Source of the DNA: an uncultured Desulfobacteraceae bacterium
GTDB lineage: Bacteria; Desulfobacterota; Desulfobacteria; Desulfobacterales; JAABSP01
Assembly (NCBI GenBank): GCA_964409085.1
Contig: CAYPCE010000002.1
Span: 1-52,136, forward strand
Length of the DNA stretch: 52,136 bases
Direction of reading: 5' to 3'
Part shown: positions 1 through 24,384 of the stretch, in pieces
Layout: each line of letters opens with the position of its first letter
How positions within the stretch are numbered: position 1 is the stretch's first letter
Notes under the pieces: model-generated
Told to the model about the DNA's origin: nothing
Databases searched by the model: none
What the model saw: the letters and a program-made list of their open reading frames with translations, nothing else
Program-made: the position numbers and the translations under genes

Positions 1-3000
1 ACATCACGGTCGGCGACATCCGGCTGGACGCTGAATCCAACAAGGACGGCGTCGTAAAGATCGCGACCCTGTCCATTAAAAACAACGGGTCGGAAATCGA
101 TGCCGGCGGCACGGCGGGCGTGTTCGGGCCGGCGTCGCTGGCCGTCAATCCGGACCTTCCACTCGCCATCACCCTGGCGTTGAAAAACGTCGAGGCCGGG
201 GATTTCCTCAAGGAACCGCCGGTGGCGGGACGGTTTTCCGGGACCCTCAAGGCCGACGGCGCCCTGAAAAACCTCAAGGCCTCCATCGACCTGTCGGCCC
301 GGAACCTCGGCGCGGCGGACGCCGCCATCGGCGACGTGGACCTGCTCGCCGGCTTTTCCGACGGCCGGGTCCGCATCGAAAACCTGACCGTGAAAAACCG
401 GACATCCGCCGTCCGGGCATCCGGAACGGCGGAGGTCCTGAAACCCGGAACCTTCGAACCCCTGGCGGACCCAACCTTCGACATCGCCCTGTCGTCGGAC
501 CGGATCATGCCGGGCGAGTTCGTACCCGACGCCGCCGGGACCCTCGCCCTGGACGCCTCGGTGGGCGGCAGCGCATCGCGGCCCACCGCCGGTGTAAATC
601 TGTCCGGCCGGTCCCTCCGCTTCGCGGACATCCGCATCGGAGATGCGGACGTCGACGTTCAACTGGCCCCGTCCGGATTGTTGACGATCAACCGGCTCTC
701 GGTGGCTAACCAGGGATCGTCCATCACCGGCAAAGGAACCCTCCAACTCTACAAGGACGCCCCCGGATTCGACCCGACCCTGCCCCTGGACCTTGCCCTG
801 ACCCTCGCGGAAGTGGAGGCCGGCGACTTTATCCAGGACGAACCCGCGAAAGGAACCCTCAGCGGCGCGGCGACGGTGACCGGCAGCATCAAGGCGCCCA
901 AAGCCGATCTGGACCTCCGGGCCCGGAACCTGGCGGCGGCGGGCAACACCATCGGCGACGTGGACGTGACGCTCGGCTTCGCCGACGGCCGGGCCCGCAT
1001 CGAAGAGATAACCGTCAAAAACAAGGATTCAAACCTCCGGATCAGCGGCACGGCCCAGGTCCTGTCGTCCGCCGACATGACGCCCCTGGCCGATCCGACC
1101 TTCGACCTGGCGGTGGCCTCCGACGGGATCTTCCTCCAGAATTTTCTCCCGGACCTGAAAGGCAAGGTCGTTCTCAACGCCGATGTGACCGGATCGGTAA
1201 AGCAGCCCAGGGGAACCGTGAACCTCGCGGCATCCGGCCTGGACCTGGGCGCCCAGAAAATCGACGCCGTTTCCCTCGCCGCCCGCATGACCGGGGACAG
1301 GATCAGACTCGATCCCCTGAAAGTAACGATCCGAAACGGCGAAACCCTCACCGCCACCGGAACCTACACCCTGCCCGACGCCTACGATCTGGCCATCCGG
1401 TCTTCCGGGATTTCGCTGTCCAGCATCGACGCCGTCCGAAAGGCCGACGTGGCCCGGGGCACGGTGCGGCTGGACCTGTCGGGCCGGGGGACCATCGCCG
1501 ACGCGGCCCTGTCGGGCGACATCGGGATCAGCGACCTGAAGGTTCAGGGAAAACCGCTGGACGACGTCAAAATGAACCTGCGCGTGGGCGACGGCCGGGC
1601 CCAGGTGGCGGCCGACGCCGGGTTCCGGCTCGACGCCGACTACAATCTCAACGACCAGACCTTCACCGCCGCCGTCGATTTTCCCGGCACGGACCTCGGC
1701 CCCTATTTCGAGCTGGCCGATCAGTCGGACCTGGGCGGCCTGCTGACCGGCAGGATCACCGCCGAGGGCAATGCCGGTGCACCGGACGCGGTCACGGCCC
1801 GGGTGGACCTTTCCCGGCTGCTCCTCACCTACCAGGAGACCGAGCTGATCGCCGCGGACCGCCTCGACGCGACGTTCCGGAACGGTGCCGTCACGATTCC
1901 CGGCTTCTCCCTCGACCTGCTCCGGAAAGGCAACCTGACCGTGCGGGGGAACGTGGATCTGGACGGCCCCATGTCCGTCACCGTGAACGGCGACATCCCC
2001 CTGAGCGTGGCCCGGGCCTTCACGGATGCGGTCCCGGACCTCTCCGGGACCCTCGGGTTGTCGGCGGACGTGGGGGGCCGGACCACTCAACCGGCAATCA
2101 AAGCCGAGGTGGACCTCCGGAACATCGCCATGTCCGTGCCGGGCATCGCCCAGCGGCTCCACGACCTCAACGGAAAGATCCGGATGTCGCCGGACTCCCT
2201 CCGGTTGTCGTCCGTTTCCGGAAAACTGGACGACGGCCGGTTCACCCTGAACGGCGACGTGGGGCTGAAAAATTTCCAGCCGGACCGCATCGACGTCGGA
2301 CTCAAGGCCGAAGCCCTGCCGGTCCGCGTACCGGACATGCTGGAAATCCTGATCAACGCCGACCTCGGCATGAACGGCACGCCGGAAAAATCGACCGTGA
2401 GCGGCGAGGTCGTCCTCCTGGAGGGCAGCTACTTCAAGGATGTCAATCTCAACCTCATCACCCCCCTCAAGGGGCTGACGGAGAAAAAACGGGAGACGGC
2501 CCCCGCCGCCCCGCCCCGGCCCCAAAAGACGGATACCGCCTCGGAACCGTCGATTCTGGACAATGTCGAGCTGGACATATTCGTCAAGAACCGCGCACCA
2601 TTCCTTGTCGATAACAACCTGGCCTACATGGAAATCCACCCGGACCTCAAAGTCGAGGGAAACGTGAACACACCGCTCATCGCGGGCCGGGCCGAGATCC
2701 GATCCGGTTCCGTCACCTACCAGGACCGCACCTTCGAAATCACGAAGGGCGACATCGACTTTCTCAATCCGTATAAGATCGAACCCACCCTCGATATCGC
2801 GGCCGACTCGACGATCCGGGACTGGCGGGTGACCCTCAACATTTCCGGGGTCCCCGATGCGCTCAATTTCAATCTGAGTTCCAAGCCGAGCCTGGACGAC
2901 GGCGACATCCTGTCGCTGATCATGTTCGGCCGCACCGCCGGCGAGATGATCAGCGGCGAGGGCGGCACGACCCAGGCGCCGGGCCAGATGGTGGCCGACA

Positions 3001-3290
3001 TCGTCTCCAGCACGGTGGGCGACGACATCAAGAAGGCCACGGGCCTCGACATCCTGGAGGTCGAACTCCAGGACGACGCGGAGGCGGGCGGAAGCGACGT
3101 GAAAGTGACCATGGGCAAGGAACTGTCGCGCCGGATGTCCGTGAAATACTCGGTGGAGTCCAAGGACGGGGAGATGGTCGGCCGCACGTCGGCCGAGTAC
3201 AAAATCCTGGAAAACCTGCTGATGAGCGGCTTTCAGGACAACACGGGAACCTTCGGCGGCGAACTGACGTTCCGGCTGGAATTCCGGTAG
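1..3290 (+). CDS. tamB: TamB/AsmA-like translocation and assembly module protein, C-terminal part including the DUF490-type end (5' end lies upstream of the window)
   Basis: Frame 3 is open from nt 3 with no stop, so the GTG listed at 120 is internal. The sequence is long, beta-rich and repetitive (G/D/L/T-rich) and ends ...GGELTFRLEFR. An Omp85-family gene follows 10 nt later. Confidence 0.75.
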   Translation, partial: ITVGDIRLDAESNKDGVVKIATLSIKNNGSEIDAGGTAGVFGPASLAVNPDLPLAITLALKNVEAGDFLKEPPVAGRFSGTLKADGALKNLKASIDLSARNLGAADAAIGDVDLLAGFSDGRVRIENLTVKNRTSAVRASGTAEVLKPGTFEPLADPTFDIALSSDRIMPGEFVPDAAGTLALDASVGGSASRPTAGVNLSGRSLRFADIRIGDADVDVQLAPSGLLTINRLSVANQGSSITGKGTLQLYKDAPGFDPTLPLDLALTLAEVEAGDFIQDEPAKGTLSGAATVTGSIKAPKADLDLRARNLAAAGNTIGDVDVTLGFADGRARIEEITVKNKDSNLRISGTAQVLSSADMTPLADPTFDLAVASDGIFLQNFLPDLKGKVVLNADVTGSVKQPRGTVNLAASGLDLGAQKIDAVSLAARMTGDRIRLDPLKVTIRNGETLTATGTYTLPDAYDLAIRSSGISLSSIDAVRKADVARGTVRLDLSGRGTIADAALSGDIGISDLKVQGKPLDDVKMNLRVGDGRAQVAADAGFRLDADYNLNDQTFTAAVDFPGTDLGPYFELADQSDLGGLLTGRITAEGNAGAPDAVTARVDLSRLLLTYQETELIAADRLDATFRNGAVTIPGFSLDLLRKGNLTVRGNVDLDGPMSVTVNGDIPLSVARAFTDAVPDLSGTLGLSADVGGRTTQPAIKAEVDLRNIAMSVPGIAQRLHDLNGKIRMSPDSLRLSSVSGKLDDGRFTLNGDVGLKNFQPDRIDVGLKAEALPVRVPDMLEILINADLGMNGTPEKSTVSGEVVLLEGSYFKDVNLNLITPLKGLTEKKRETAPAAPPRPQKTDTASEPSILDNVELDIFVKNRAPFLVDNNLAYMEIHPDLKVEGNVNTPLIAGRAEIRSGSVTYQDRTFEITKGDIDFLNPYKIEPTLDIAADSTIRDWRVTLNISGVPDALNFNLSSKPSLDDGDILSLIMFGRTAGEMISGEGGTTQAPGQMVADIVSSTVGDDIKKATGLDILEVELQDDAEAGGSDVKVTMGKELSRRMSVKYSVESKDGEMVGRTSAEYKILENLLMSGFQDNTGTFGGELTFRLEFR
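156..1403 (+). repeat. Intragenic tandem duplication of a ~208-aa module inside tamB
   Basis: Module 1 (LPLAITLALKNVEAGDFLKEPPVAG...PLADPTFDIALSSD) and module 2 (LPLDLALTLAEVEAGDFIQDEPAKG...PLADPTFDLAVASD) align along their whole length at the protein level. The module tail motif (SIKNNGSEIDAGGTAG / SVANQGSSITGKGTL / TIRNGETLTATGTY) recurs three times. Confidence 0.6.
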
Positions 3291-3299
3291 GACGACCCT

Positions 3300-6104
3300 A
3301 TGACGCGATTCTTCTTCTGGCTGCTGGCGGGATTGATTTTGACGACCCCATGCGCATGGGGCGCTGAGCCGGCCGGGGCCGGTCCGGAGACCGGCCCGCC
3401 GACCGTATCGGATGTGATCGTTCGGCTCGACAACGTCGGCCCCGAGGACGACAAGACGCTTCTGGAAGCCATGGCCCGGTCGGCCATCTTCATTGATCCG
3501 GGCGACGCGCTGGCTGAAAAATCCCTCCAGGACACCATCGACGCCCTGAAGCTCATCGCGCTGTTTTCCGAAATCCATGTCGATACAGAGGAGACCGCCG
3601 ATGGGCTCGCCCTCGTCTTCGACCTGACCGTGGCCGACCGCATCAAGGACATCGATATCGACGGGAATTTCCCGGTCCTGGAGCGGGAGGTGTTGAACGC
3701 CATGTCCGTGGCCGTGGGCGACGCTTATTTCCCCGACAAGGTGATGGCGCAGGAATCCCGGATCGCCGATCTGTTCAAGCGGCAGGGGTTCTATCACCCG
3801 ACGGTCTCCATCGTTCCGCGCCGGGACGACGCCGACCGTCATTACGTCCTCGGAATCACTATCGACAAGGGCCCGTACCACGACATCCGCTCCCTCGCCT
3901 TCAACGGCAACGATTCGTTTTCCGATCTGCGGCTCAAAATCCGGATGGACGCATGGACCCGGTCGCTGCTGCCCGGTTCCGCCGGCCGGTTCATCAAAAA
4001 AGATTTCGAGGACGACATCCGGGACCTGCGGGAATTTTACCGGGCCAAGGGATTCGCCGAATCCGAGATCGATTACGAGGCCAATCTGGACGACGCGGAA
4101 GAGACCGCGACGATCGTCGTCAATATCGTCGAGGGACCCCGCTACCGGGTGGACATCGAAGGCAACGAGGAATTCTGGGGCTTCACCCTGAAAAAGGACC
4201 TGACGATCTTCGAGGAGGGCAACCAGGGCGGCCGGGGCCTGCGCAAAAGCGTCCGCGGTATCGAAAAACGGTACGCCGCCGGCGGCTATCCCGACGCAAA
4301 GGTGGAGGTCCAGACCGATGATGAAAAAAAAGAAGGGGTCCGGGATCTCGACCTGACCATCGAGGAGGGCCGCCGCGTCATCGTGAAGACCGTTGCCATC
4401 ACCGGCAACACGGCCTTCGACGACGAAAAGATCCTGAAGCAGATGCTCACCGGTCCGCCCGGAGTTCTCTTCGACGGCGCCTTCGACCCCAACGAGCTGG
4501 AAAAGGACAAAAACGCGATCCTTTCCCTCTACTACAAGGAGGGGTACCGGTCCACGAAGATCGAGACGCCGCTGTCATGGAACGACGACAAAACCCGGGT
4601 CTCGGTCGAGGTGCGGATCAATGAAGGGGTGCAAACCGTCGTGTCCGAGACGGTCGTCGAGGGCAACACCCTCATCACGGACGGGGAGGCCCTGGCGGCG
4701 ATCCACCTGACCCCCGGCACGCCCTTCCGGGAATACATGCTCGAAAGCGACGGCAACGCGCTGGCGGCCCTGATCTCCGAGCACGGACGGCCCTATGTCC
4801 GGGTGAGCGGAGAGTTCACCCTCTCCGACGACGACACGAGCGCCCGGGTCGTTTACACCGTGGACGAGGGCCTCCAGGTGACCATGGGCCAGGTCTACAT
4901 CACGGGCAATTTCAAGACCCGGGAGCGGATCATCCGCCGGGAGTTGACGATCCATCCCGGCGATCCCTTTTCGCCCAAAAAGCTCCTGGAAACCCAGCGG
5001 AACATCCGGGACCTGGACATCTTCGAATCCGTCCGGTTCAAGGCGGTGGGGCTGAAGGAAAGGGCCGACACCGTCGACCTGTTCGTGGAGATCGAGGAAC
5101 GGAAACCCTACGTCGTCTCCTTCGGCGGCGGGTACGACACCCGGCGGGAACTCTTTTTCCACGCCCGGGGCGAAAACCGCAACCTCCTGGGCCTCAACCT
5201 GTCCACCTGGCTGGCCGGGGAAGTGAGCCAGATCGGATACCGGGGCGAATACGGGTTCACGGAGCCGCGCCTTCTGGGGTCCCGGATCGCCATGTCCCTG
5301 GGCCTGTTCGCCGAAGAGCGGGAGGAACGCAACCAGGATTTCGGCATCCGGACCTACGGGGCCTCCGCCGGCTTTACCCGCCGGTTTTTCGACAAGCTGA
5401 GCCTCTCCCTGGGGCTCCGGTACGAAAACCGGGACCAGGTCCGGCGCGACGATATCAAAGCCGGTGAGACCGCGATCTACGAGGACGACGAATTCCGGCC
5501 CCGCCAGATCGTGGTGGCCTCACCCGCCATCGGCTTCGACACCCGGGATTCCTTCATCAACCCCAAAAAGGGCGTCTATGCCACCATCGGCGCGGACGTC
5601 TCCACCGGGGTGGAAAACTCCCTGGACAATTTCGTCAAATACCGGTTCGACGCCCGGTGGTACGTCACGCCGGTCAAACGGCTCACCTTCGCCCTGCGGG
5701 GGCAGGGCGGCTACATCGATCCCTACGGCGGCGTCGACAAGGTGCCCGACGATCAGCTTTTTTTCCTGGGCGGGACCTCGGACGTGCGCGGGTTCGACGA
5801 GAACCTCCTCCTGCAGGGTGCCGATGACGGCCCCCTGGGCGGTCACAAATCCCTCATGGGCAGCGTCGAGGCCCGCATCGCCCTCGGGGCCGGCTTCGAA
5901 CTGGCGCTCTTCTACGACATCGGACGCCTCTCCGACACCTTCGGGGAGACCGGCGGCACCGCCGGGTTCCGCTCCACCGCCGGCGGCGGCATCCGGTACA
6001 TCACCCCGGTGGGCCCCATCGGATTCCTCTACGGTTTCAAGCTCGATCCCAGGGAAGAGGAACCATCGGGACGGCTCCATTTTTCCATCGGGTACACTTT
6101 CTGA
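3300..6104 (+). CDS. bamA: Outer-membrane protein assembly factor, Omp85/BamA family (signal peptide, POTRA-rich N-terminal half, C-terminal beta-barrel)
   Basis: 934 aa. Signal peptide MTRFFFWLLAGLILTTPCAWG|AEP. Repeated POTRA-like units (I..I.I.GN...). Barrel motifs FFLGG.SDVRGF and GGGIRY. The protein ends ...HFSIGYTF, an aromatic C-terminal beta-signal. Whether it is the essential BamA or a TamA-like paralogue cannot be decided here. Confidence 0.75.
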   Translation: MTRFFFWLLAGLILTTPCAWGAEPAGAGPETGPPTVSDVIVRLDNVGPEDDKTLLEAMARSAIFIDPGDALAEKSLQDTIDALKLIALFSEIHVDTEETADGLALVFDLTVADRIKDIDIDGNFPVLEREVLNAMSVAVGDAYFPDKVMAQESRIADLFKRQGFYHPTVSIVPRRDDADRHYVLGITIDKGPYHDIRSLAFNGNDSFSDLRLKIRMDAWTRSLLPGSAGRFIKKDFEDDIRDLREFYRAKGFAESEIDYEANLDDAEETATIVVNIVEGPRYRVDIEGNEEFWGFTLKKDLTIFEEGNQGGRGLRKSVRGIEKRYAAGGYPDAKVEVQTDDEKKEGVRDLDLTIEEGRRVIVKTVAITGNTAFDDEKILKQMLTGPPGVLFDGAFDPNELEKDKNAILSLYYKEGYRSTKIETPLSWNDDKTRVSVEVRINEGVQTVVSETVVEGNTLITDGEALAAIHLTPGTPFREYMLESDGNALAALISEHGRPYVRVSGEFTLSDDDTSARVVYTVDEGLQVTMGQVYITGNFKTRERIIRRELTIHPGDPFSPKKLLETQRNIRDLDIFESVRFKAVGLKERADTVDLFVEIEERKPYVVSFGGGYDTRRELFFHARGENRNLLGLNLSTWLAGEVSQIGYRGEYGFTEPRLLGSRIAMSLGLFAEEREERNQDFGIRTYGASAGFTRRFFDKLSLSLGLRYENRDQVRRDDIKAGETAIYEDDEFRPRQIVVASPAIGFDTRDSFINPKKGVYATIGADVSTGVENSLDNFVKYRFDARWYVTPVKRLTFALRGQGGYIDPYGGVDKVPDDQLFFLGGTSDVRGFDENLLLQGADDGPLGGHKSLMGSVEARIALGAGFELALFYDIGRLSDTFGETGGTAGFRSTAGGGIRYITPVGPIGFLYGFKLDPREEEPSGRLHFSIGYTF

Positions 6105-6135
6105 TCCCACGCCCGTACCCACCCGCCACGCCCCA

Positions 6136-7293
6136 TCAGGTTGGATCCGCGCCAGCCCCCATGCTGAGCGTGGAGTGAAACCATTCCCTGAACACCGCAT
6201 TGTAGGTTTTCCTCCCGGCGGCAATATCCAGATAGGCCCTGCCCGCCCGGCTGCCAGAAACGGCGAAGAACCATTTGATGAGCCGGGGGCATCGGTAGAA
6301 TATTGGCGCGATACGATGGATCACCGACAGTTCATCCAATATCTCCCGCTTGAAATCACGGTTGTAGTGGAGCAATTCTTTCCGGTCGCCGGTGGCCAGG
6401 GCGGCCGTGATGGCACCGGCGGCCAGCCATGCCCCCTTGAAGGCGTGGTAGATACCCTCGCCGGTGATGGGATCGGTCACGCCGGCGGCATCGCCGATCA
6501 CCAGTCCGCGCCGGTTGGCGAAGACCGATTCCTTTTTGGGCGAATGGGGAATTGGGTGCCCCCGGAAATGATCGATCCGGCAGGTGTCCGCCAACCCTTT
6601 CCCCGACAGGTAGCGCCGGAACCATCCGTTCAGGTTTTGAATCCGGCCGGCCGTGGTGAGCACGCCCACCGACAGGTGATCTGATTTGGGAAAGACCCAT
6701 CCGTAACCTCTGGGGACGACGCCGAAATCGAAATGGACTTGCCCTTTGAAACGGTCCAGCATCAGGGACGCCGGTGGATAGACCTCGCCCTGGACCGCCG
6801 CCATCCGTTTTGCCTTTATTTGCAGTCCCAGCGCCTTGGCTGTCCGGCTGTTGACGCCGTCGGCGCCGGCCAGAATTCGGGTTCGGATGTTCCCCGTATC
6901 CGTGCTGATGCTCAGGCAAGTCGAGCCGGAAAAGGAACGGAAGGATTCACCGGAGCGGATACGGGCCCCCGCATCCGACGCCTGCCGGCACAAAAAAGCG
7001 TCGAACCGGTCTCGCATGACCATCTTGATGGTCGTGCCATCCAGAGATTCTTTGTGAACCGTGCGGTAATCGACGCCGATGTGGGCGGTCCTCGCCGCGT
7101 CTTCCGCCAGACCGTCGATGGGGAAAGGGATCAGCCGCACGGCCCGCTCGGTGAGACCGCCGCCACAAAGCTTGTAGCGGGGCAATGCCCGCTTTTCCAG
7201 GATGACGGCGTCGATGCCCCGGCTCGCCAGAAGGTATCCCAGCAACGCGCCGGCCGGACCGGCGCCCACGATCACCACATCGCAGGACGTCAT
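6136..7293 (-). CDS. Geranylgeranyl reductase family FAD-dependent oxidoreductase
   Basis: N-terminal dinucleotide fold DVVIVGAGPAGALLGYLLASRGIDAVILEK, then KLCGGGL and GDAAG motifs typical of the GGR/FixC-like family. 385 aa. Confidence 0.75.
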   Translation of the reverse strand: MTSCDVVIVGAGPAGALLGYLLASRGIDAVILEKRALPRYKLCGGGLTERAVRLIPFPIDGLAEDAARTAHIGVDYRTVHKESLDGTTIKMVMRDRFDAFLCRQASDAGARIRSGESFRSFSGSTCLSISTDTGNIRTRILAGADGVNSRTAKALGLQIKAKRMAAVQGEVYPPASLMLDRFKGQVHFDFGVVPRGYGWVFPKSDHLSVGVLTTAGRIQNLNGWFRRYLSGKGLADTCRIDHFRGHPIPHSPKKESVFANRRGLVIGDAAGVTDPITGEGIYHAFKGAWLAAGAITAALATGDRKELLHYNRDFKREILDELSVIHRIAPIFYRCPRLIKWFFAVSGSRAGRAYLDIAAGRKTYNAVFREWFHSTLSMGAGADPT

Positions 7294-7303
7294 AACATGG
7301 AAT

Positions 7304-8056
7304 TCAGGCCATGCCGCCGTTGGCGTAAAGGATCTGGCCGTTCACCCATTGCCCCTCGGGGCTGGCCAGAAAGGCGACGACCCGGGCGATGTCCTCCGGT
7401 TGCCCCAGCCGTTTCAGGGGCGCCATGTCGGCCATCCGCTGTTTCACTTCTTCGGTCTTTCCGGTGTTGAACAGGTCGGTCTCCACCGGCCCCGGCGCCA
7501 CGGCGTTGACGGTGATCCCGCGCCCTTCCAGCTCTTTGGACAGGATGCGCGTGAACATCTCCACCGCCGCCTTGGTACCGGCATAGACGGCATATCCCGG
7601 CAGGGCCATGCGGATGATGGTGGTCGACATATTGATGATCCGTCCGCCGTCCCTTATGCGCCGGGCCGCTTCCCGAAGGGGCATGAAGGTTCCCCGGGCG
7701 TTGACGGCGAAAAGGCGGTCGAACTGGTCATCGCTGGTCTCAGCGATGGGCGTGGTTTTTTCCAGCGCGACGCCCGCGTTGTTGACCAGAATGTCGAGCG
7801 CCCCGAACGCCGTTTCAGTTTCGTCGAAGAGGCGGCCGACATCCTCCGTGCGGCCGACATCCCCCTGAAGGGCGACGGCCCTGCCGCTGTTTTTCCGGAT
7901 CTTCTCCACCACATCGTTGGCCGCTCCGTCATTTCCGACGTAGTTGACCGCGACCGAAGCGCCGGCCGATGCCAGCCGCAACGCGATGGCCCGGCCGATG
8001 CCGCGCGAAGCGCCGGTGATCAGCGCAGTTTTGCCTTCCAGTGGTTTGGATTTCAT
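7304..8056 (-). CDS. Short-chain dehydrogenase/reductase (FabG-like, classical SDR)
   Basis: TGASRGIGRAIA cofactor motif, NNAG, and catalytic Y-x3-K (YAGTKAA). 250 aa. The stop is 10 nt upstream of the GGR-like start, so the two are likely co-transcribed. Confidence 0.85.
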   Translation of the reverse strand: MKSKPLEGKTALITGASRGIGRAIALRLASAGASVAVNYVGNDGAANDVVEKIRKNSGRAVALQGDVGRTEDVGRLFDETETAFGALDILVNNAGVALEKTTPIAETSDDQFDRLFAVNARGTFMPLREAARRIRDGGRIINMSTTIIRMALPGYAVYAGTKAAVEMFTRILSKELEGRGITVNAVAPGPVETDLFNTGKTEEVKQRMADMAPLKRLGQPEDIARVVAFLASPEGQWVNGQILYANGGMA

Positions 8057-8077
8057 ATGCCAGTTCCCATTTTATCG

Positions 8078-8172
8078 CTGTCTGAACCAGGATTTATGAG
8101 ATTAAAGGATTAGCGGATTTCAGAAGCTTGAATCCCACCAATCCTTTAATCCCGTAATCCCGGTTCAGACAG
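8078..8172. repeat. 95-nt compound inverted repeat (long imperfect hairpin) built from GGATT/AATCC units
   Basis: Hand-paired stems: 8078-8088 with 8162-8172 (11 bp, perfect); 8090-8094 with 8156-8160 (5 bp); 8100-8111 with 8140-8151 (12 bp, perfect); 8115-8119 with 8131-8135 (5 bp). The apical loop contains AAGCTT. AATCC recurs at 8131, 8140, 8148 and 8156. The element is AT-rich relative to its flanks and lies between the helicase stop and the SDR start. Confidence 0.8.
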
Positions 8173-8180
8173 TTGAGTGA

Positions 8181-11100
8181 CTAATTGAACAACCCCAACT
8201 GAACCTGCCCTTCCCTCTTCTTCTTTTTGTAAATCGGCGTTTCACGTTTCAGCAATCGGCTTTCGATGTCCGACACAAACGGCGACCGCTTCCGTTCCAG
8301 GGTGTTGCCGTAAAGGGTCCGCTTTTTCGACCAGGAGAGAACCAGTTGAGATTTGGCCCGGGTCATGCCGACGTAGAACAGGCGTCGTTCCTCGTCCACA
8401 TCCACGTCATCGCCGCCGGCCCGCTGATAAGGGATCAATCCCTCCTCGCAGCCCATAATGAAAACAACCGGAAATTCCAACCCCTTGGCTGCGTGCAGGG
8501 TCATCAGCGATACCTTCTGGACGTTGGCGGCGCACACATCCGGATCGGCGTCCAGAGCGATGGCGTCCAGAAACGCCGCCGCATCCCGGTGATGAGCCGC
8601 CGCGGTCGCCATCAGCCGATCATACGCATCCATTCGACGGTTGTCTTCAGATATGACCTCCCACAAGTTCAGGGTCCGTACGAGGCGATTCAGCCGGTCG
8701 GCCACCGGTCGGTCGGCGAATTCCTTTTTCAATTCGGAAAGGCCGTGCATCATCTTCTTGATGTCCTGTTGATCGGCGGTTCCCGGGCCGACGGCGGAGG
8801 TTGCGGCAGCATGCGCCAGGGCGTCCGGCAGGGGCATTCCGCTGTCGAAAAACCAGGCACGGAAGCGGTCGATCGTCGCTTTCCCTGCACGGAAATGCGA
8901 CAGGGATGAAACGGCTTCGAGATCCCCGAACCGGCCGAGGCCTTCCATGAGCCGCAGACAGGAGATCAGGGGCGCGATGCCGGGTTGATCGTAAAGGTGC
9001 TCCCGGCTGGCCATCTGATAGGGAATGCCGGCGCCGTCAAAGACCTCTGCCACGATCCGGCCCTGAACCTTTGTCCGGAACAGCACGCCGAAGTCGGAGA
9101 AGGCATGGTCGACCGCCCCGCCGTCGGTTTTCCCGAAATCGATGGCATGAAAACTCGACCCGCCCACCATCCGCTCGATGGTCTTCCCGACCGCCACGGC
9201 TTCGGCGCGTTCCGAGGCCGCCTCCCGGATCGTCAACGTGTCGATGCCCTTCAGGCCGGAGTACACCCGCGCCCCCTCGCCGTCGATGGCATGGTCCCCC
9301 AGTACCTGGGCCGAGGCCTCCAGAATGGTCTCCACCGACCGATAGTTTCGATGGAGGCGGATCAGCCGGCTCTCCGGAAAATCGGCGGCGAAGCGCTCGA
9401 AAAACCGGACGTCCGATCCCCGGAACCCATAGATGGACTGATCCGGGTCGCCGATCACGCACAACCCCCGTCCCTCCGGCGACAGGAGCCGGATCAACCG
9501 GTACTGACCGAAATTGAGGTCCTGGTATTCGTCCACGAAGACATAACGGAACCGCCGCCGGCATCGGGCCAGAAAATCGGGGTCCTCATCCAGTTTCTTC
9601 GCCACTTTCAGGATCAGGTCCTCGAAATCCCACCCCGCCATTCGGCTCAGCAGGTCCTGATAGATTCGATAGACCGCCCGAAACCCGTCCGGATCTTCCC
9701 GCGCCCCGGGTCCCGGTCGATCATCGGGTGTCAGCAACTGCTGCTTCGCCTCCCGGATCATCGTCGCCGCGGCCTCCGGCGAGATATTGATATCGCGTCC
9801 CTCTTTCCGGGAGCGGCGCAACGCCTCCCGGATGAGCAGCATCCGCTCGGCATCATCCAGCACCGACCCGGTCTCCCCGATCTCTTCTTTCAGGAGCCCA
9901 AGACACAGGCCGTGGAAGGTGGTCGTCAGCGGCAGCCCCTCTTCCGGGGAGAGCAGGGTTTCCAGCCGTTCCGCCATCTCCCGCGCCGCTTTGTTGGTGA
10001 AGGTGACAGCCAGGACGGCGTCCGGGGGGACATTTTCATCCCGGATAAGATGGGCGATGCGGTGGGTGAGGGTCCGGGTTTTTCCGGCGCCGGGGCCGGC
10101 GACGATCAGCAACGGGGCGGTGCCATGAAGAACCGCCTCCCGTTGTTCGGGGTTGAGGCCGTCTGTGATATTGCCGGTCGGGACGGGGTCAGCGCTGTTT
10201 CGGGCCGAATCCGACCCCTCCCGCGATGCCGTTGCCGGATCATCGCAGGTCGGCGTGCCGGGTGCCCCGGGCGGCAGTTGGGGTTGCCCCCTGGTTTTGC
10301 CGGCGGCGTTCGCCTTCGGTTTTCCGAAAAGGGAATACTGGCCCCGCCGTTCATCCCGCTCATCATCGGTGAACAGCGTGATCCGGCCGTATTCGCCGTC
10401 GTATCCCGGAACAATGCGGACCGTTTCGGCCCGCATGCGGCGGATCGCCTCGCCCAGCAGGGGAATCCCCGCCGCTTCGATGGCGTCGATGGGCGTTTTG
10501 AGCAGGATATCGAGTTCGGGGCCGAGGGCCCGCAAAAGGGCCGTATAGGGGGTTTGAACCGTGTTCGTTTTGGGCCCCTTGCCGAAAATCTCCGACAGGA
10601 TTTCCGGCAGGGGGATGATGTGGCGGCACGGCAGGGCCGTGTCCGGCCGCCGGCCTCCGGGATGGTCGGCGAGGGCCGCCGTCCGGTGCAGCACGCCCAG
10701 GGTCAGGGGTTTCCCGCATTCGGGGCAGCGGTTGTCCAGCCGCATGGACTCGGCGGGGTGAAGACAAACCCCGCATTTCCGGTGCCCGTCGTAATGGTAT
10801 TTTCCCTCTTCCGGGTAGAGATCGAGGGTGCCGAGGCACCGGGCGGGATCGCCGCTCTTCAGGGCCGACCGGAGGGCCGGAAAGGACCATTCCATGCTGA
10901 AGCGGTTGGCGTTCCGGCCCAGGGTGAAGACCGAGTGGGCGTCGGAATTGGAGACCAGCGTCAGGCCGTCCAGGGCCGACACCCGCCAGTTCATGGGCGG
11001 ATCGGAAGACAGGCCGGTCTCGGCGGCGAAGATCTCCGGGGTCAGGTCCCCGAAACAGTCCGCGATGGCGTCGAAGCCGGATTTGGAGCCCAGCACCGAA

Positions 11101-11609
11101 AACCAGGGGGTCCAGATATGGGCCGGGATGAGGATGGCCTCCTCCGACGTTTCCAGGAGAATGTCCAGCAGATCCCGGGCGTCCAGCCCCAGAATGGGGC
11201 GTCCGTCGGACTGGATGTTGCCGATGGCGTCGAGCTTCCGGTTGAACGTTGCGGCGGCGTCCAGATCCGGCAGAAGGATCACCTGGTGGTTTTTCCGCGT
11301 CCGGCCGTCCTTTTTGTAGATATTGCTGATCTCACCCTGGAGAACGAACCGGACCTCGCGCCGGCAGCCCGGAACAACGGCGCCCGCCCAGCTCGCCTCG
11401 ATGTCGTCCCGCAGCTTGAACAGACCCGGCTCGGCCGGAACCAGCTTTTCGGACAGCTCGGCGAACCAGGCCGGATGGGTGACGTCGCCCGTTCCCACCA
11501 GCGCGATGCCTTTCTGCTGAGCCGCCACATACAGGTGCTCCAGGTCGAGGGTTTTCGATGTGGCCCGGGAGTATTTCGAGTGGACGTGGATGTCGGCGAT
11601 GAATTCCAT
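8181..11609 (-). CDS. Fusion protein: N-terminal Endonuclease Q-like PHP-domain nuclease (with zinc finger) and C-terminal UvrD/PcrA-type superfamily-1 helicase
   Basis: Trimmed start MEFIADIHVHSKYSRA... (ATG 11609; alternative ATG 11627). EndoQ hallmarks appear in order: DIHVHSKYS, LVGTGD, GRP, PAHIWTPW, SNSDAHS, LGRNANRF, GKYHYDGH, CPECGKPLTLGVLHR (about 10681-10740), PGYDGEYGRI. A ~90-aa low-complexity linker follows. Then UvrD motifs: LNPEQREAV, Walker A AGPGAGKTRT (about 10080-10100), DEYQD, GDPDQSIY, YRS, and C-terminal TLHAAKGLEF...VGMTRA. The 72 codons upstream of MEF in the listed ORF look like off-frame junk. Confidence 0.8.
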   Translation of the reverse strand: MEFIADIHVHSKYSRATSKTLDLEHLYVAAQQKGIALVGTGDVTHPAWFAELSEKLVPAEPGLFKLRDDIEASWAGAVVPGCRREVRFVLQGEISNIYKKDGRTRKNHQVILLPDLDAAATFNRKLDAIGNIQSDGRPILGLDARDLLDILLETSEEAILIPAHIWTPWFSVLGSKSGFDAIADCFGDLTPEIFAAETGLSSDPPMNWRVSALDGLTLVSNSDAHSVFTLGRNANRFSMEWSFPALRSALKSGDPARCLGTLDLYPEEGKYHYDGHRKCGVCLHPAESMRLDNRCPECGKPLTLGVLHRTAALADHPGGRRPDTALPCRHIIPLPEILSEIFGKGPKTNTVQTPYTALLRALGPELDILLKTPIDAIEAAGIPLLGEAIRRMRAETVRIVPGYDGEYGRITLFTDDERDERRGQYSLFGKPKANAAGKTRGQPQLPPGAPGTPTCDDPATASREGSDSARNSADPVPTGNITDGLNPEQREAVLHGTAPLLIVAGPGAGKTRTLTHRIAHLIRDENVPPDAVLAVTFTNKAAREMAERLETLLSPEEGLPLTTTFHGLCLGLLKEEIGETGSVLDDAERMLLIREALRRSRKEGRDINISPEAAATMIREAKQQLLTPDDRPGPGAREDPDGFRAVYRIYQDLLSRMAGWDFEDLILKVAKKLDEDPDFLARCRRRFRYVFVDEYQDLNFGQYRLIRLLSPEGRGLCVIGDPDQSIYGFRGSDVRFFERFAADFPESRLIRLHRNYRSVETILEASAQVLGDHAIDGEGARVYSGLKGIDTLTIREAASERAEAVAVGKTIERMVGGSSFHAIDFGKTDGGAVDHAFSDFGVLFRTKVQGRIVAEVFDGAGIPYQMASREHLYDQPGIAPLISCLRLMEGLGRFGDLEAVSSLSHFRAGKATIDRFRAWFFDSGMPLPDALAHAAATSAVGPGTADQQDIKKMMHGLSELKKEFADRPVADRLNRLVRTLNLWEVISEDNRRMDAYDRLMATAAAHHRDAAAFLDAIALDADPDVCAANVQKVSLMTLHAAKGLEFPVVFIMGCEEGLIPYQRAGGDDVDVDEERRLFYVGMTRAKSQLVLSWSKKRTLYGNTLERKRSPFVSDIESRLLKRETPIYKKKKREGQVQLGLFN

Positions 11610-13078
11610 GGGAGGGCATTTAACCATAAAAAGGGGCGGAACACAACTTTTCCGCCGGATCGATCCGGCATGGATGTCCCGGTCTCCGGCGCCGTCTTCT
11701 CCGGCTCCGGTCTCTCCCCGGTTGACCGTGCGGCGTCGGGCGGAATCGTATGGCGGTTGACCCGGCCGCGCCGGAACCGGGACCACCGGAAATTCGCACC
11801 GGTCAAATCCGTTTCCCGGCGCCACTCCCCCCTGAAATCGGTGCCGCCCAGCGTGGCCGCCGCGAACACCATCCGCTGAAGGCGGGATGACCGGGGATCT
11901 TTTGTCATTGCCCGCCAGCCCGCATAGGAGGAGAGCCCCATGAACGCCAGGGCGGCGCCGGACACCGCCAGGGCCATGGACCAGTCCACGAACAGGCAGA
12001 AGAAGACCGCCAGCGATACGGGCGCCGCAATGGAACAGTTCAGGGTCCAGTGCAACCGGGATGCCTCGGAGAGAATGTCCCGCAGCGGTTTGACATGGTA
12101 CATCAGGATTTTCAATTCAAACAGAAAGACCAACACCACCCCCAGCGCCACCGTCGTCAGGGCGCCGCAGGTCGCGACGAACCAGAGGGGAAGCCCCACA
12201 ATCCGAGACATCGCCGTTCCCAGGACCAATACAAACGCCAGTAAAAGGGTCTCTTTCATCGCCACTATCCGCGGTGTCGCCCGGAACAGCAGCTCCCGGG
12301 GAAGATCGACGTGGACCCTGTTCAGGCAATGGTAAAACAGCACAACCGTGAGGATGATCTGAAACCAGGTGGACAGCCCGAACAAAGCGGTCATTCCCAT
12401 AAGAAACCGCCAGGCATCGGTGTGATCCCGGCTGAACGGTTTTGTCCACAGGAGGTAACAGGCGATGGCGATTCCGACGGCCAGACCGGTCTGACACAAC
12501 CATGCCAGGACCCTCCCGAAAAGATCGTATTGTTCATAAGGGACCGGCTCCGCCGTCGTCACGAATATCGCGGCTGAAATGGTCAGCGCCCCCGCGCCGA
12601 CGGCAGCCGCCAGAATGGCCCCCACGGCGACGGCCGCCAGGGCCGGGGAGAGATACATGGTGAGAAAACAGGCCAGGGTACACGCCAGAGCAGCCAGGCC
12701 GGCGATCACCCGGTCAAATCGGATGCAGAAGAAAAGGAACAGGGCGATCGCCGACGCAAAGCCGATGGTGCATAAAACCGCCTCACCCGCCCCTGCCCAT
12801 CCCAGGCAGCGGTCCAGGCATGCCTGCACCATGACGAACAGGGCAATGGCGGAACCGGAAAACAGAAAGCCCGACACCGCCGCCCCGGTCGTGGCGGCCA
12901 GATTCATTCCCCATTGACAGCGCCGTCGGGCGCCGATCCGGGCGCCGCAGAACCGGGCGCCGGTCAGCGTCGCTCCCCTGAAACTGACCCCGCGGAGGTC
13001 CGCGCCCGTGAAATCGGCATTTGACAAATCCTTGCCCGCGAAACACTGCTTTCGAAGATCCTGATGGGCAAAATTCAT
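11279..13078 (-). CDS. Polytopic membrane protein with pentapeptide repeats at both termini
   Basis: N-terminus KDLSNADFTGADLRGVSFRGATLTGARFCGARI (A(D/N)LXX pentapeptide repeats), then about 9-10 hydrophobic helices, then a second repeat patch GGTDFRGEWRRETDLTGANFRWSRF. The ATG overlaps the WD40 stop (ATGA at 13075-13078). The frame has no stop until 11279, so the last ~110 codons overlap the helicase gene and read like non-native sequence. The true 3' end is uncertain. Confidence 0.6.
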   Translation of the reverse strand: MNFAHQDLRKQCFAGKDLSNADFTGADLRGVSFRGATLTGARFCGARIGARRRCQWGMNLAATTGAAVSGFLFSGSAIALFVMVQACLDRCLGWAGAGEAVLCTIGFASAIALFLFFCIRFDRVIAGLAALACTLACFLTMYLSPALAAVAVGAILAAAVGAGALTISAAIFVTTAEPVPYEQYDLFGRVLAWLCQTGLAVGIAIACYLLWTKPFSRDHTDAWRFLMGMTALFGLSTWFQIILTVVLFYHCLNRVHVDLPRELLFRATPRIVAMKETLLLAFVLVLGTAMSRIVGLPLWFVATCGALTTVALGVVLVFLFELKILMYHVKPLRDILSEASRLHWTLNCSIAAPVSLAVFFCLFVDWSMALAVSGAALAFMGLSSYAGWRAMTKDPRSSRLQRMVFAAATLGGTDFRGEWRRETDLTGANFRWSRFRRGRVNRHTIPPDAARSTGERPEPEKTAPETGTSMPDRSGGKVVFRPFLWLNALPWNSSPTSTSTRNTPGPHRKPSTWSTCMWRLSRKASRWWERATSPIRPGSPSCPKSWFRPSRVCSSCGTTSRRAGRAPLFRAAGARSGSFSRVRSAISTKRTAGRGKTTR

Positions 13079-22320: not shown

Positions 22321-24384
22321 CTATTCTTTTTCTTTTTTCGCCGATTCGATCACCTTGTCGGCCATCTGGGCCGGGAGTTCGTCGTAGTGGGAAAACTCCA
22401 GGGTGAACATGCCGCGGCCGCCGGTCATGGAGCGGAGATCCGGGGCGTAGGTGAGAAATTCGGACATGGGCACGTTGGCGGTGATGATCTGGTTTTTGCC
22501 CTTGCTGTCCATGCCGAGCACCCGTCCGCGGCGGCCATTGAGGTCGCCCATGATGTCGCCGGTGAAATCGTCGGGGGTAGTGACGGTGATCTTCATGATG
22601 GGCTCCAGCAAGACGGGGTCGGCCTGTTCGGCCGCTTTTTTGAAGGCCAGGGAGCCGGCCACCTTGAAGGCCATTTCCGAGGAATCTACCGAGTGGTAGG
22701 ACCCGTCGTCCACGGTCACTTTGAAATCGACCACCGGATAGCCGGCCAGGATGCCCCGCTCGGCCGCCTCGACCACCCCCTTTTCCACCGCCGGGATGTA
22801 CCCTTTGGGGATCGCGCCGCCCACGATGGCATCGACAAACTCGAACCCCGCACCGCGCTCCTGTGGTTCCAGGACGATCCAGCAGTCGCCGAACTGGCCG
22901 TGGCCGCCGGTCTGTTTCTTGTGTTTGCCCTGAACCCGGATCTTCTTCTTGATGGTCTCCTTGTAGGGCACTTTGGGAATTTTCAGCTCCACTTCGACGC
23001 CGAACTTCCGCTTGGCTTTTTCGCAGACGGCCTCTATGTGGACCTGTCCCATGCCCGAGAGCAGAATCTCCTTGGTCTCGGTGTTCCGGGTCAGTTTCAG
23101 GGCCGGATCTTCCTCCATGATCTTGGCCAGGGATTGGAAGACCTTGTCCTCCTCCCCCTTCTCCTTGGCCGACACGGCATAGGAGATGACCGGAGGAAGG
23201 GATTCGGCGCAGTCGTACCGGATCTTGGCGGATGCATCGCAGAGGGTGTCGCCGGTTCGGGTTTCCTTGAGCTTGGACACGGCCACGATGTCGCCGGGTC
23301 CCGCCTCCTTGACCGGTTTCTGCTCCTTGCCCGCGATGCGCAGCAGGGCGGAATAGCGCTCTTTGGTCTCCTTGTTGACATTGTACAGGTTGCCGTCCCC
23401 GCTGATTTTGCCGGAGACCACCCGGAAGATGGAGAGCTGGCCGGCGTAAGGGTCGGCCACGGTTTTGAACACAAAAGCGGAAAAGGCGGCGTCCGGATCA
23501 GGCGCCCGCTCGATCTCCTCCCCGCTGGACGGATCGACCCCGACCCTGGGACCCCGATCAGCCGGCGACGGCATGCAGCCGACAATGAAATCCATCATCG
23601 GCTCGACGCCGATGGTTTTAGTGGCGGCCCCGCAGACCACGGGAGCAAAGGCCCGGTTGAGAATGCCTTTACGGAGGGCGGCTTTGAATTCGTCTTCCGA
23701 AATTTCCTCCCCTTCCAGATACCGCTCCAGCAGCGCGTCGTCGGCTTCGGCGACGTTTTCCATCAGGGTTTCCCGCTCGCTATCCGCTTTTTCCTTCAGA
23801 TCGCCGGGGATATCGCCGATGGAGACCTTGCCGTCTTCATCGTAGGTAAAGGCCTTCATGGACAGCAGGTCCACGACGCCCTTGAAATCCGCTTCCGCCC
23901 CGATGGGAAACTGGGTCAGAATCGGTTTGGGGTCGAGGACCTCGGCGGCGTCCTGGAAGGTGCGGTCGAAATCGGCCCGCTCCCGGTCCAGTTTATTAAT
24001 AAAGATCAGGCAGGGCTGATTGAACTCGCTGGCGAACTCCCATCCCTGCTCGGTTTGCACCTTGACCCCGTCGATAGCATCTAGGAGGATCGCCACCCCG
24101 TCGGCCGCCTGCATGCTGGTTCGGGTGTCGGAAAAGAAGTTCTGGTCTCCGGGGGTGTCGATCAGGTTGATGGCGTGCTTCTTCCACTCCACCTGATGAA
24201 AGGCGCTGCTGATGGTGATGCCGCGCTTGAGTTCCTCCGGCTCATAGTCCATGGCGGTGTTGCCATCCTCGATGCGGCCCAACCGTTTGGTTACGCCCGC
24301 CTTGAACAGCATCGCCTCGGCCAGAGAGGTCTTTCCGGAGTCGCCATGACCCACCAGGGCTATGTTCCTTAATTTGTCCACCAT
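22321..24384 (-). CDS. Elongation factor G paralogue (EF-G II-like translational GTPase)
   Basis: G1 GHGDSGKTS, TAMDYEPEE.KRGITI, DTPGDQNF, NKLD, and EF-G domains II-V through to the C-terminus. Start placed at ATG 24384 (MVDKLRNIALVGH); alternative GTG 24420. Confidence 0.85.
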   Translation of the reverse strand: MVDKLRNIALVGHGDSGKTSLAEAMLFKAGVTKRLGRIEDGNTAMDYEPEELKRGITISSAFHQVEWKKHAINLIDTPGDQNFFSDTRTSMQAADGVAILLDAIDGVKVQTEQGWEFASEFNQPCLIFINKLDRERADFDRTFQDAAEVLDPKPILTQFPIGAEADFKGVVDLLSMKAFTYDEDGKVSIGDIPGDLKEKADSERETLMENVAEADDALLERYLEGEEISEDEFKAALRKGILNRAFAPVVCGAATKTIGVEPMMDFIVGCMPSPADRGPRVGVDPSSGEEIERAPDPDAAFSAFVFKTVADPYAGQLSIFRVVSGKISGDGNLYNVNKETKERYSALLRIAGKEQKPVKEAGPGDIVAVSKLKETRTGDTLCDASAKIRYDCAESLPPVISYAVSAKEKGEEDKVFQSLAKIMEEDPALKLTRNTETKEILLSGMGQVHIEAVCEKAKRKFGVEVELKIPKVPYKETIKKKIRVQGKHKKQTGGHGQFGDCWIVLEPQERGAGFEFVDAIVGGAIPKGYIPAVEKGVVEAAERGILAGYPVVDFKVTVDDGSYHSVDSSEMAFKVAGSLAFKKAAEQADPVLLEPIMKITVTTPDDFTGDIMGDLNGRRGRVLGMDSKGKNQIITANVPMSEFLTYAPDLRSMTGGRGMFTLEFSHYDELPAQMADKVIESAKKEKE

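Follow-up and report, generated by a model that had tools for sequence, protein, structure and literature searches.

A predicted EndoQ-type nuclease joined to a PcrA/UvrD-type helicase in an uncultured Desulfobacteraceae bacterium, and its fused, split and lone bacterial relatives

The stretch of DNA analysed here (the window) comprises 52,136 nucleotides, positions 1 to 52,136 of contig CAYPCE010000002.1 in assembly GCA_964409085.1 of an uncultured Desulfobacteraceae bacterium. Its minus strand carries a gene predicted to encode an Endonuclease Q (EndoQ)-type nuclease followed, in the same polypeptide, by a superfamily 1A (SF1A) helicase of the PcrA/UvrD type. The gene had been picked out from the sequence alone, in what we call the original prediction, as encoding one protein of 1142 amino acids. 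This was borne out by the list of open reading frames (ORFs), by the translation and by an identical database protein: the fusion gene is a single uninterrupted ORF, and P0001, a protein of assembly GCA_054920815.1, has 1142 residues and is 100% identical to the product of the window gene. The twelve motif strings named in the original prediction were all found, in the order in which they had been listed (Table 1). The window gene is one further member of an architecture that is present in the databases.

Two alignments were used, one of 43 family members (alignment A1) and one of 121 sequences, the query plus 120 homologues, for mapping residues. The longest mechanical ORF at the fusion gene, 8181..11825, has a GTG start and would encode 1214 amino acids; the ATG at 11609 gives 1142 codons and a stop. 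In alignment A1 the N-termini of the homologues all read M-x-F-I-A-D-x-H-x-H, and GC content at third codon positions (GC3) shifts into the frame of the fusion gene only near 11650. These results, together with the length and identity of P0001, therefore indicate that the ATG at 11609 is the correct start. The GTG at 11825 was ruled out, as the homologues and P0001 begin with MEF or MKF and the GC3 switch lies near 11650. An ORF of 964 amino acids on the opposite strand (8985..11879) overlaps the fusion gene; GC-rich coding strands commonly give rise to such ORFs, and this is most likely its origin.

Table 1. Predicted features of the fusion gene and its product. Positions are those of the window; residues are numbered from the ATG at 11609. 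pLDDT, predicted local distance difference test score.
Feature	Residues	Window position	Strand	Basis or remarks
Complete fusion coding sequence		8181..11609	(-)	1142 codons; stop codon 8181-8183
EndoQ PHP-type catalytic domain	1-265	10815..11609	(-)	alignment with P. furiosus EndoQ; pLDDT mostly 80-97
EndoQ zinc-binding domain	266-330	10620..10814	(-)	alignment; includes K270 (P. furiosus K243)
EndoQ C-terminal helical domain, ending PGYDGEYG	331-415	10365..10619	(-)	P. furiosus ~304-382; PF27218; Foldseek
Internal β-clamp-binding-type motif GQYSLF, at the EndoQ module/linker boundary	423-428	10326..10343	(-)	pattern conservation
Disordered inter-domain linker, Pro/Ala/Gly/Thr-rich	429-484	10158..10325	(-)	pLDDT; end of EndoQ fold to Q motif
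SF1A (PcrA/UvrD/Rep-type) helicase core	485-1121	8247..10157	(-)	Pfam, NCBIfam, PDB, Foldseek
Disordered basic C-terminal tail RETPIYKKKKREGQVQLGLFN	1122-1142	8184..8246	(-)	pLDDT <50 over 1121-1142
C-terminal β-clamp-binding-type motif QLGLF, consensus QL[SD]LF	1137-1141	8187..8201	(-)	pattern conservation
Helicase motif Q	N486, Q489			
Helicase motif I	G505-T511			
Helicase motif Ia	T536-A542			
Helicase motif II	D693-D697			
Helicase motif III	G720-G731			
Helicase motif IV	Y756-S758			
Helicase motif V	H1039-F1046			
Helicase motif VI	Y1079-A1085			
EndoQ string DIHVHSKYS	6-14			
EndoQ string LVGTGD	37-42			
EndoQ string PAHIWTPW	162-169			
EndoQ string SNSDAHS	220-226			
EndoQ string GKYHYDGH	269-276			
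EndoQ string CPECGKPLTLGVLHR	295-309			
EndoQ string PGYDGEYGRI	401-410			
Helicase string AGPGAGKTRT	504-513			
Helicase string DEYQD	693-697			
Helicase string GDPDQSIY	720-727			
Helicase string TLHAAKGLEF	1037-1046			
Helicase string VGMTRA	1080-1085			

When the protein was compared with all PDB sequences, residues 5-412 matched EndoQ of Pyrococcus furiosus (5zb8, 7k30) with E 8e-50, and the next match had E 0.4. The module as a whole, residues 1-415, aligned end to end with the P. furiosus enzyme, and its predicted structure (AlphaFold model, compared by Foldseek) superposed on 5zb8 with a TM (template modelling) score of 0.85-0.87 and a root-mean-square deviation of 3.2-3.9 Å. The precomputed Pfam annotation of the EndoQ C-terminal helical domain contains PF27218 (MJ0043_C). 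The generic PHP model of Pfam gave no match to the fusion protein at E ≤ 0.01. A generic PHP phosphoesterase was ruled out, as there was no Pfam PHP match and only EndoQ matched in the PDB. The EndoQ family model of NCBIfam, TIGR00375, matched over profile positions 63-374 with E 3e-43 and 148.5 bits, below its curated cut-off of 326.6. From these comparisons the nuclease of the fusion clade is assigned to a divergent bacterial subfamily of EndoQ.

In P. furiosus EndoQ the metal ligands are H8, H10, E76, H84, H139 and D193, the wedge residue is Trp144 and the zinc site is of the C4 type, with C249, C252, C268 and C271 (PMC5961232); the lesion pocket consists of H139, G169 and S171 (PMC8307549). 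The metal ligands map to H8, H10, E93, H108, H164 and D223 of the fusion protein, with H225 in addition (P. furiosus H195), the pocket to G199-L200-S201 (P. furiosus G169/L170/S171) and the wedge to W169. The catalytic and pocket positions are kept in essentially all of the 120 homologues, H8 falling in a gap in one of them; H164, G199, S201 and W169 are invariant, and the string SNSDAHS is identical to that of P. furiosus. The predicted zinc finger was present as well, with ligands that differ from the archaeal set. They map to H276, C279, C295 and C298, all invariant in the bacterial clade including the fusions. The position of P. furiosus C249 is thus occupied by an invariant His (10782-10784, in DGHRKC), against Cys in the archaeal TACSRC and the Bacillus-type TACQGC. 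In the CGVC string of the window protein the second Cys is variable across the family (P0048, for example). Because the first position is His, the three following Cys are invariant and the extra CGVC Cys is variable, the fusion clade plausibly has a C3H zinc site made of these four ligands. Taken together, the alignments and the model indicate a complete nuclease of the EndoQ type in the N-terminal module, with PHP metal site, flipped-base pocket, zinc-binding domain and helical domain. The identity originally proposed for it is upheld, against that of a generic PHP enzyme, by the EndoQ-specific PDB match, the retained catalytic and pocket positions and the conserved putative zinc positions.

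A structure of the whole fusion protein was predicted as a single chain with AlphaFold2 (AF2) from the 43-sequence alignment. Confidence was high across the EndoQ module, whereas residues 424-477 had pLDDT values below 50. The linker proper is ~56 residues long, not ~90 as had been estimated; across the family linkers have a median length of 49 residues (range 15-101) and are enriched in P, K, A and S, with no conservation of sequence. The model thus depicts nuclease and helicase as modules that are flexibly tethered to each other.

The C-terminal module matched the Pfam models UvrD-helicase (residues 485-745, E 2e-69, 234.9 bits against a cut-off of 23) and UvrD_C (residues 750-1096, E 1e-40, 140.6 bits against 25.6). 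Its best solved relative was PcrA (1pjr, chain residues 11-648 of 724, E 3e-98), followed by Mycobacterium tuberculosis UvrD1 and Escherichia coli UvrD, and Foldseek retrieved UvrD (2is1) and PcrA at E ~3e-34. The helicase motif residues are invariant or nearly so in alignment A1. These matches and the complete set of motifs agree with the full SF1A helicase of the original prediction, and we conclude that the module is, as predicted, a complete helicase of the PcrA/UvrD type. SF1A helicases translocate 3′ to 5′. The NCBIfam equivalog cut-offs were not reached by the PcrA model (E 4e-131, 438.6 bits; cut-off 911.2), the UvrD model (346.1; cut-off 1144) or the Rep model (365.8; cut-off 951). 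The partner-binding C-terminal extension, ~75 residues past the PcrA core, is missing, and the fusion protein ends 21 residues beyond the core. Given the scores below the equivalog cut-offs and the missing last ~75 residues, the module appears to represent a distinct SF1A subfamily and not a housekeeping PcrA or UvrD. Judged by residue conservation, the catalytic centres of both modules are intact and under selection.

A word-indexed protein search gave, among the matches listed, 120 homologues that were 48-80% identical to the query; nearly all of these spanned the full query in the alignment and had 1070-1210 amino acids. Most were from Desulfobacterales, and the complete genomes of Desulfonema magnum and D. 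ishimotonii were among the sources. More than 240 full-length fusion homologues were collected. With the EndoQ module alone as query, an exhaustive HMMER search of 1.84 billion representatives of protein clusters at 50% identity yielded 3663 proteins at E ≤ 1e-3, of which 1033 reached E ≤ 1e-30; nearly all of the best 150 of the 3663 (E ≤ 1e-134) were 1000-1270 amino acids long. A scan of one genome per GTDB species gave at least 586 confirmed loci. The best 80 of these were analysed by scanning six-frame ORFs with one hidden Markov model per half. They span Desulfobacterota, Chloroflexota, Gemmatimonadota, Planctomycetota, Myxococcota (Sorangium), Actinomycetota (Phytoactinopolyspora), Bacteroidota (Rhodothermaceae), Verrucomicrobiota, Latescibacterota, KSB1, Omnitrophota, candidate-phyla-radiation lineages and Alphaproteobacteria. 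In a rough neighbour-joining tree the sequences grouped broadly by phylum.

Both halves lay in one ORF at 66 of the 80 loci, some of them cut by contig ends. At six further loci (L064, L068, L071, L073, L080 and L082) an EndoQ ORF was followed on the same strand by a separate ORF for a UvrD-type helicase, and the two abutted or overlapped in at least three of these pairs. At the remaining eight the EndoQ ORF had no adjacent UvrD-type helicase. The pattern of fused and split genes supports the view that the nuclease and helicase activities act together. The lone forms are nested inside fused clades: L023 stands beside the fused L007 in the tree, and L033, L045 and L054 lie within Desulfobacterales, in the same syntenic position as their fused orthologues. 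This nesting implies that the helicase was lost more than once, and it points to repeated, recent deletions of the helicase domain in the EndoQ-only genes.

The original prediction had named a frameshift or assembly error as what might have created the junction. An artefact of this kind, in which a frameshift, a chimeric assembly or read-through joined two genes, would fit the metagenome-assembled origin of the genome, the low-complexity junction and the split pairs seen in other lineages. The junction is nevertheless kept across hundreds of independent assemblies: the fusion recurs at 66 of 80 independent loci, among them the complete genomes of the cultured Desulfonema magnum and Sorangium sp. 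So ce1078, and in more than 240 full-length proteins, and GC3 stays high in the frame of the gene after its start. Since the fusion recurs in this way across independent loci and full-length proteins, an artefact was ruled out, and we give that explanation virtually no credence.

In a Thermodesulfovibrionales metagenome-assembled genome (L069) the lone EndoQ ORF, 3043-4338, keeps a clamp-type ending, GQSLLFQ*, and ~370 nucleotides downstream on the same strand (4710-6284) lies, in place of one for a UvrD-type enzyme, a gene for a PIF1-like SF1B helicase that has a WYL domain at its C-terminus. This helicase may be a non-orthologous partner of opposite polarity, with one instance only. In a Desulfocicer metagenome-assembled genome (L025) the helicase part is divided between two overlapping ORFs, 5992-8592 and 8466-9212 (867 and 249 amino acids), which is probably a frameshift or an assembly error in that genome.

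The fusion protein ends in ...KKKKREGQVQLGLFN, and this end contains a motif of the type that binds the β sliding clamp. The pattern Q[LIVM]x[LIVM]F occurred in the last 15 residues of 191 of the 244 full-length homologues, against a mean of 0.9 and a maximum of 6 in shuffled tails, and in 1 of 658 control ORFs; most homologues lacking the strict pattern had near variants (QLxLL, QLxLW or QxxLF). A second motif lies at the end of the EndoQ module, where Qxx[LIVMF]F was found in 196 of 244 homologues compared with 7.4 in shuffles, and where L427 and F428 are invariant in alignment A1. Both motifs fall in segments with pLDDT below 50 in the AF2 model.

Of the six EndoQ ORFs at split loci, five stop directly at the motif (QLALF*, GQGTLF*, KQLTLF*, DQLTLF* and PQMQLF*) and the sixth runs three residues beyond it (QKTLFSFF*). 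Four of the six helicase ORFs likewise end at a motif of their own (QMRLF*, QMGLF*, QMTLF* and QVSMF*), the other two extending one or two residues past it (QLKLFLQ* and QLELFS*). It therefore appears that each module brought its own C-terminal motif and that fusion made the first one internal, embedded in the linker. The motif was missing from seven of the eight lone EndoQ ORFs; in these EndoQ-only genes (L033, L045, L054, L023, L052, L077 and L078) helicase and QxxLF motif have both been lost. The two conserved motifs point to a dependence of the fusion protein on the β sliding clamp. They parallel the situation in archaea, where the C-terminal PIP box of EndoQ binds proliferating cell nuclear antigen (PCNA) with a dissociation constant of 55 nM and cleavage is stimulated by PCNA (PMC4858679).

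EndoQ nicks DNA on the 5′ side of deoxyuridine (dU), deoxyinosine (dI), deoxyxanthosine (dX) and abasic (AP) sites, leaving a 3′ OH and a 5′ phosphate on the lesion nucleotide (PMC5961232; PMC8307549). With these properties we propose, as a moderately probable reading, that the fusion carries out clamp-tethered nick-and-unwind repair of deaminated and abasic bases, a variant of the alternative excision repair that EndoQ initiates. The protein would be held on DNA through the β sliding clamp. Its EndoQ module, by analogy with the archaeal and Bacillus enzymes, would flip out a uracil, a hypoxanthine or an abasic residue and nick directly 5′ of it, and the tethered helicase would load at the nick so made. 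To displace a lesion located at the 5′ terminus of the downstream strand, the motor would be expected to follow the intact strand away from the 3′ OH; most likely it would track the complementary strand 3′ to 5′ and peel off the 5′-terminated lesion strand. UvrD unwinds likewise in mismatch repair when the nick lies 5′ of the mismatch, as does PcrA once RepD has nicked. A 5′ exonuclease or flap nuclease, a clamp-bound polymerase and a ligase, all encoded elsewhere, would complete the repair. That nicking is coupled to unwinding had been part of the original prediction, and the pattern of gene fusion and gene splitting supports it, the coupling itself being what we infer. The accompanying description as a one-protein excision pathway was an overstatement, since removal of the strand or flap, resynthesis and ligation need other enzymes, and the clamp-type motifs suggest dependence on the β clamp besides.

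The helicase may also release the nuclease from its nicked product, and such release could be its main purpose, in place of tract excision: a turnover device that strips the product-bound EndoQ module off and hands the nick to Pol I or FEN-type enzymes. UvrD has a comparable task in nucleotide excision repair, where it releases UvrC and the excised oligonucleotide. A tether would keep the motor beside the nuclease, the helicase-less relatives show that excision is possible without a helicase, and P. furiosus EndoQ stays bound to nicked product (PMC5961232). The module is, however, a complete four-subdomain helicase with a conserved 2B subdomain (the A1 consensus keeps GIG), which goes beyond the apparent need of self-release. 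The sequence is compatible both with turnover and with excision of a tract, and we consider turnover as the main function unlikely.

Several points weigh against repair by clamp-tethered nicking and unwinding. The residues R201 and K276, which contact the DNA backbone in P. furiosus EndoQ, are not conserved, and K243 is kept. As the cut-offs of TIGR00375 and of the PcrA model are not reached, the substrate range could differ from that of the characterised enzymes. Clamp binding is predicted from a motif of only five residues, and the tracked strand, and hence the displaced strand, is assigned purely by analogy. The AF2 model has a predicted template modelling score (pTM) of 0.50, which leaves the geometry between the domains undefined; as the linker is also disordered, no inter-domain geometry can be claimed, and on the same two grounds a fixed docking of the modules was rejected. 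With eight of 80 relatives devoid of an adjacent UvrD-type helicase, the nuclease is apparently able to act alone. No exonuclease, polymerase or ligase gene was conserved beside the fusion across phyla at the 80 loci. Literature searches, a passing mention being possible, found no description, name or biochemical characterisation of the fusion, in line with the original prediction.

In the window, the fusion gene is followed downstream by genes for a short-chain dehydrogenase/reductase (SDR) and an FAD-dependent reductase and preceded by genes for a pentapeptide-repeat membrane protein and a WD40 protein. Elsewhere lie genes for TamB, an Omp85/POTRA protein, two EF-G paralogues, PGI, a TlyA-like methyltransferase and a DinG-like helicase; the context is an ordinary chromosome of housekeeping character. 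The EF-G paralogues are both full length and 17 kb apart (22321-24420 and 41116-43200, minus strand), and the DinG/XPD-like helicase has 902 amino acids with Helicase_C_2 and DEAD matches (45076-47784, minus strand). Scans of the window for tRNAs and Rfam families gave no matches. A promoter and terminator scan returned counts at chance level; just upstream of the fusion start, at 11656-11635, there is one terminator-like hairpin, GGCGGAAAAGTTGTGTTCCGCC, with a T-run after it.

The pentapeptide-repeat protein corresponds to an ORF of 599 amino acids (11279-13078, minus strand) with N-terminal pentapeptide repeats and many hydrophobic segments. It starts 4 nucleotides before the stop of the upstream WD40 gene and stays open to 11279, 330 nucleotides into the fusion gene, and its GC3 signal fades near 11750. 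Public gene calls omit it and have two small antisense genes instead. Its 3′ end reflects either a frameshift or lost stop, or a non-functional read-through tail.

Clustering of flanking ORFs at the 80 loci revealed no neighbour genes conserved across phyla. At ~13-15 Desulfobacterales loci (L009, L010, L014, L016, L022, L025-L028, L034, L045 and L054 among them) the EndoQ or EndoQ-helicase gene is divergent from an adjoining RdgC-like gene, an unknown gene of 212 amino acids, dnaN and gyrB, and in 17 loci a gene for an SLT lytic transglycosylase lies downstream. This RdgC-like/dnaN/gyrB/SLT synteny is restricted to Desulfobacterales and absent from the window. In Desulfonema magnum (L002, CP061800.1) a Vsr gene (8058-8726) is located ~1.3 kb upstream of the fusion on the same strand, and toxin-antitoxin and HNH genes lie downstream; the window lacks this set. 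Vsr is the very-short-patch repair endonuclease, specific for T:G mismatches.

The adjacency of dnaN alongside the clamp motifs is suggestive. A fork accessory helicase of the Rep or PcrA kind, carried with the replisome on the clamp and fitted with a lesion sensor that cuts at uracil or hypoxanthine in template or nascent DNA, would account for the two clamp motifs and for the divergent dnaN-gyrB arrangement. Single-stranded DNA is also a substrate of EndoQ, whose interaction with the clamp has suggested a role in the replication complex (PMC8307549). Nicking of the template at a fork would, however, make double-strand ends, the dnaN synteny is found in one order only and is missing in the window, and the partner-binding C-terminal region of PcrA and UvrD is missing. 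We therefore regard a fork accessory role as very improbable.

Defence against phages or other foreign DNA was considered as well. Here unusual or uracil-containing DNA, such as that of PBS1-type dU phages, would be nicked and then processed by the motor for destruction. The pairing of a nuclease with an SF1 helicase is common among defence systems, the GajB models of Gabija in PADLOC matched the helicase half (best 271 bits), the Desulfonema magnum copy is near toxin-antitoxin and HNH genes, and a review mentions a possible antiviral role of Bacillus EndoQ (PMC8307549). PADLOC had no match to the nuclease half, however, and the PcrA score of the helicase (439 bits) exceeds that of GajB. The protein cannot be counted as Gabija: the GajB models match the generic helicase core only, the window holds no adjacent GajA/OLD-type partner or other defence gene, and the neighbours encode the SDR, FAD-dependent reductase, pentapeptide-repeat and WD40 proteins. 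The EndoQ module had no match in 50,697 phage genomes and a single one among 72,556 plasmids; this was a stand-alone 'endonuclease Q family protein' carried by a Brevibacillus replicon of 733 kb. The Desulfobacterales copies adjoin dnaN-gyrB, outside defence islands, the tree follows phylum, and motifs for clamp binding are a typical feature of replication and repair factors. With no phage match, a single plasmid match and, in PADLOC, only a generic GajB match below the PcrA score, a defence role is distinctly unlikely.

Part of the family is already in the literature. β-Clamp motifs in bacterial EndoQ homologues were noted in 2016 (PMC4858679), and Supplementary Figure S1 of that paper tabulates 44 such homologues, ten of 405-464 and thirty-four of 945-1244 amino acids. 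In the thirty-four long ones the clamp motif stands at the very end, and the short ones have a motif of the same class. The long ones include proteins of Desulfobacterium autotrophicum, Geobacter metallireducens, Zymomonas mobilis, Rhodothermus marinus, Sorangium cellulosum, Desulfovibrio vulgaris, Bilophila wadsworthia and Caldilinea aerophila. It follows from this table that the long proteins have already been published as 'EndoQ homologs'. The words helicase, UvrD, fused and fusion are absent from the main text and supplement of the 2016 paper. The original prediction, correct about the architecture, gave neither the strand nor the clamp-type motifs, the published table or the commonness of the architecture. 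The fusion family is thus already catalogued, common in bacteria and apparently uncharacterised.

What follows the EndoQ nick is an open matter even in archaea. A helicase acting after the nick was postulated there, as a hypothetical step, in Figure 10 of the 2015 discovery paper (PMC4357722) and again in PMC8438529, and these published models leave it unnamed. A helicase that is attached or encoded by the next gene, together with the clamp-type motifs, provides a testable candidate for this missing step, and experiments are feasible as the fusion is present in several cultured hosts that are genetically tractable. The statement, repeated in reviews, that EndoQ occurs in only 'a few bacteria' is contradicted by the census. 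A wider proposition is that the fused or operon-split EndoQ-helicase with two clamp motifs is the main bacterial form of EndoQ and a widespread, glycosylase-free excision route; this is tentative, and we hold it to be somewhat doubtful. By such a route the protein would scan DNA, possibly newly replicated DNA, while tethered to the clamp, nick it on the 5′ side of uracil, hypoxanthine or abasic sites and unwind the damaged strand itself. If true, bacteria would have an excision pathway for deaminated bases that resembles mismatch repair, and the 'few bacteria' statement would be overturned.

Archaeal EndoQ (P. furiosus PF1551, Thermococcus kodakarensis TK0887) has the same PHP, zinc-binding and helical domains, metal ligands and pocket as the fusion, and in both a motif of the clamp-interaction type follows the nuclease module; identity is ~31-34%. 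It is a stand-alone protein of ~420 amino acids whose zinc site is C4 and which carries a PIP box for PCNA, whereas the fusion has a predicted C3H site, a bacterial motif of the QL[SD]LF type and an SF1A helicase. Stand-alone bacterial EndoQ of the Bacillus pumilus/subtilis type (Shiraishi 2017) is cited, in PMC6202378 and PMC8438529, as nicking at dU, dI and AP sites. The Bacillus and Brevibacillus proteins share the catalytic core but are only ~28% identical to the fusion module; they have no helicase and a C4 site (TACQGC), and that of Brevibacillus is without a QxxLF ending. NucS/EndoMS of Actinobacteria is likewise a repair endonuclease of archaeal type, attached to the β clamp through a C-terminal motif (cited in PMC8438529); it resembles the fusion in being such an enzyme in bacteria with a clamp-type motif at its C-terminus. 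In contrast to the fusion, it has an unrelated fold, cuts both strands at mismatches and lacks a helicase.

In AddAB, RecBCD and AdnAB, too, one polypeptide combines a nuclease with a UvrD-like SF1A motor; these enzymes gave weaker Foldseek and NCBIfam matches. Their nuclease is a C-terminal PD-(D/E)XK domain and they act at double-strand ends, whereas that of the fusion is N-terminal, PHP-type and predicted to be lesion-specific. UvrD (E. coli 2is1), which works with MutHLS and UvrABC, has the same helicase fold and motifs. It enters at nicks that a damage- or mismatch-directed nuclease has made, the same logic as proposed here for the fusion. UvrD is a protein of its own, which MutL or UvrB recruits and which has a C-terminal partner-binding region; the fusion instead has an attached nuclease, a basic tail and a clamp-type motif. 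PcrA (1pjr, 3pjr), the best-scoring helicase relative, takes part in rolling-circle replication, where the RepD/RepC nickase stays at the 5′ end and PcrA tracks the intact strand 3′ to 5′, displacing the nicked strand ahead of the polymerase. RepD and RepC are sequence-specific, become covalently linked to DNA, are encoded separately from the helicase and serve replication, where for the fusion a role in repair is proposed; with these differences, PcrA with RepD/RepC is the closest mechanistic analogue of the action proposed for the fusion.

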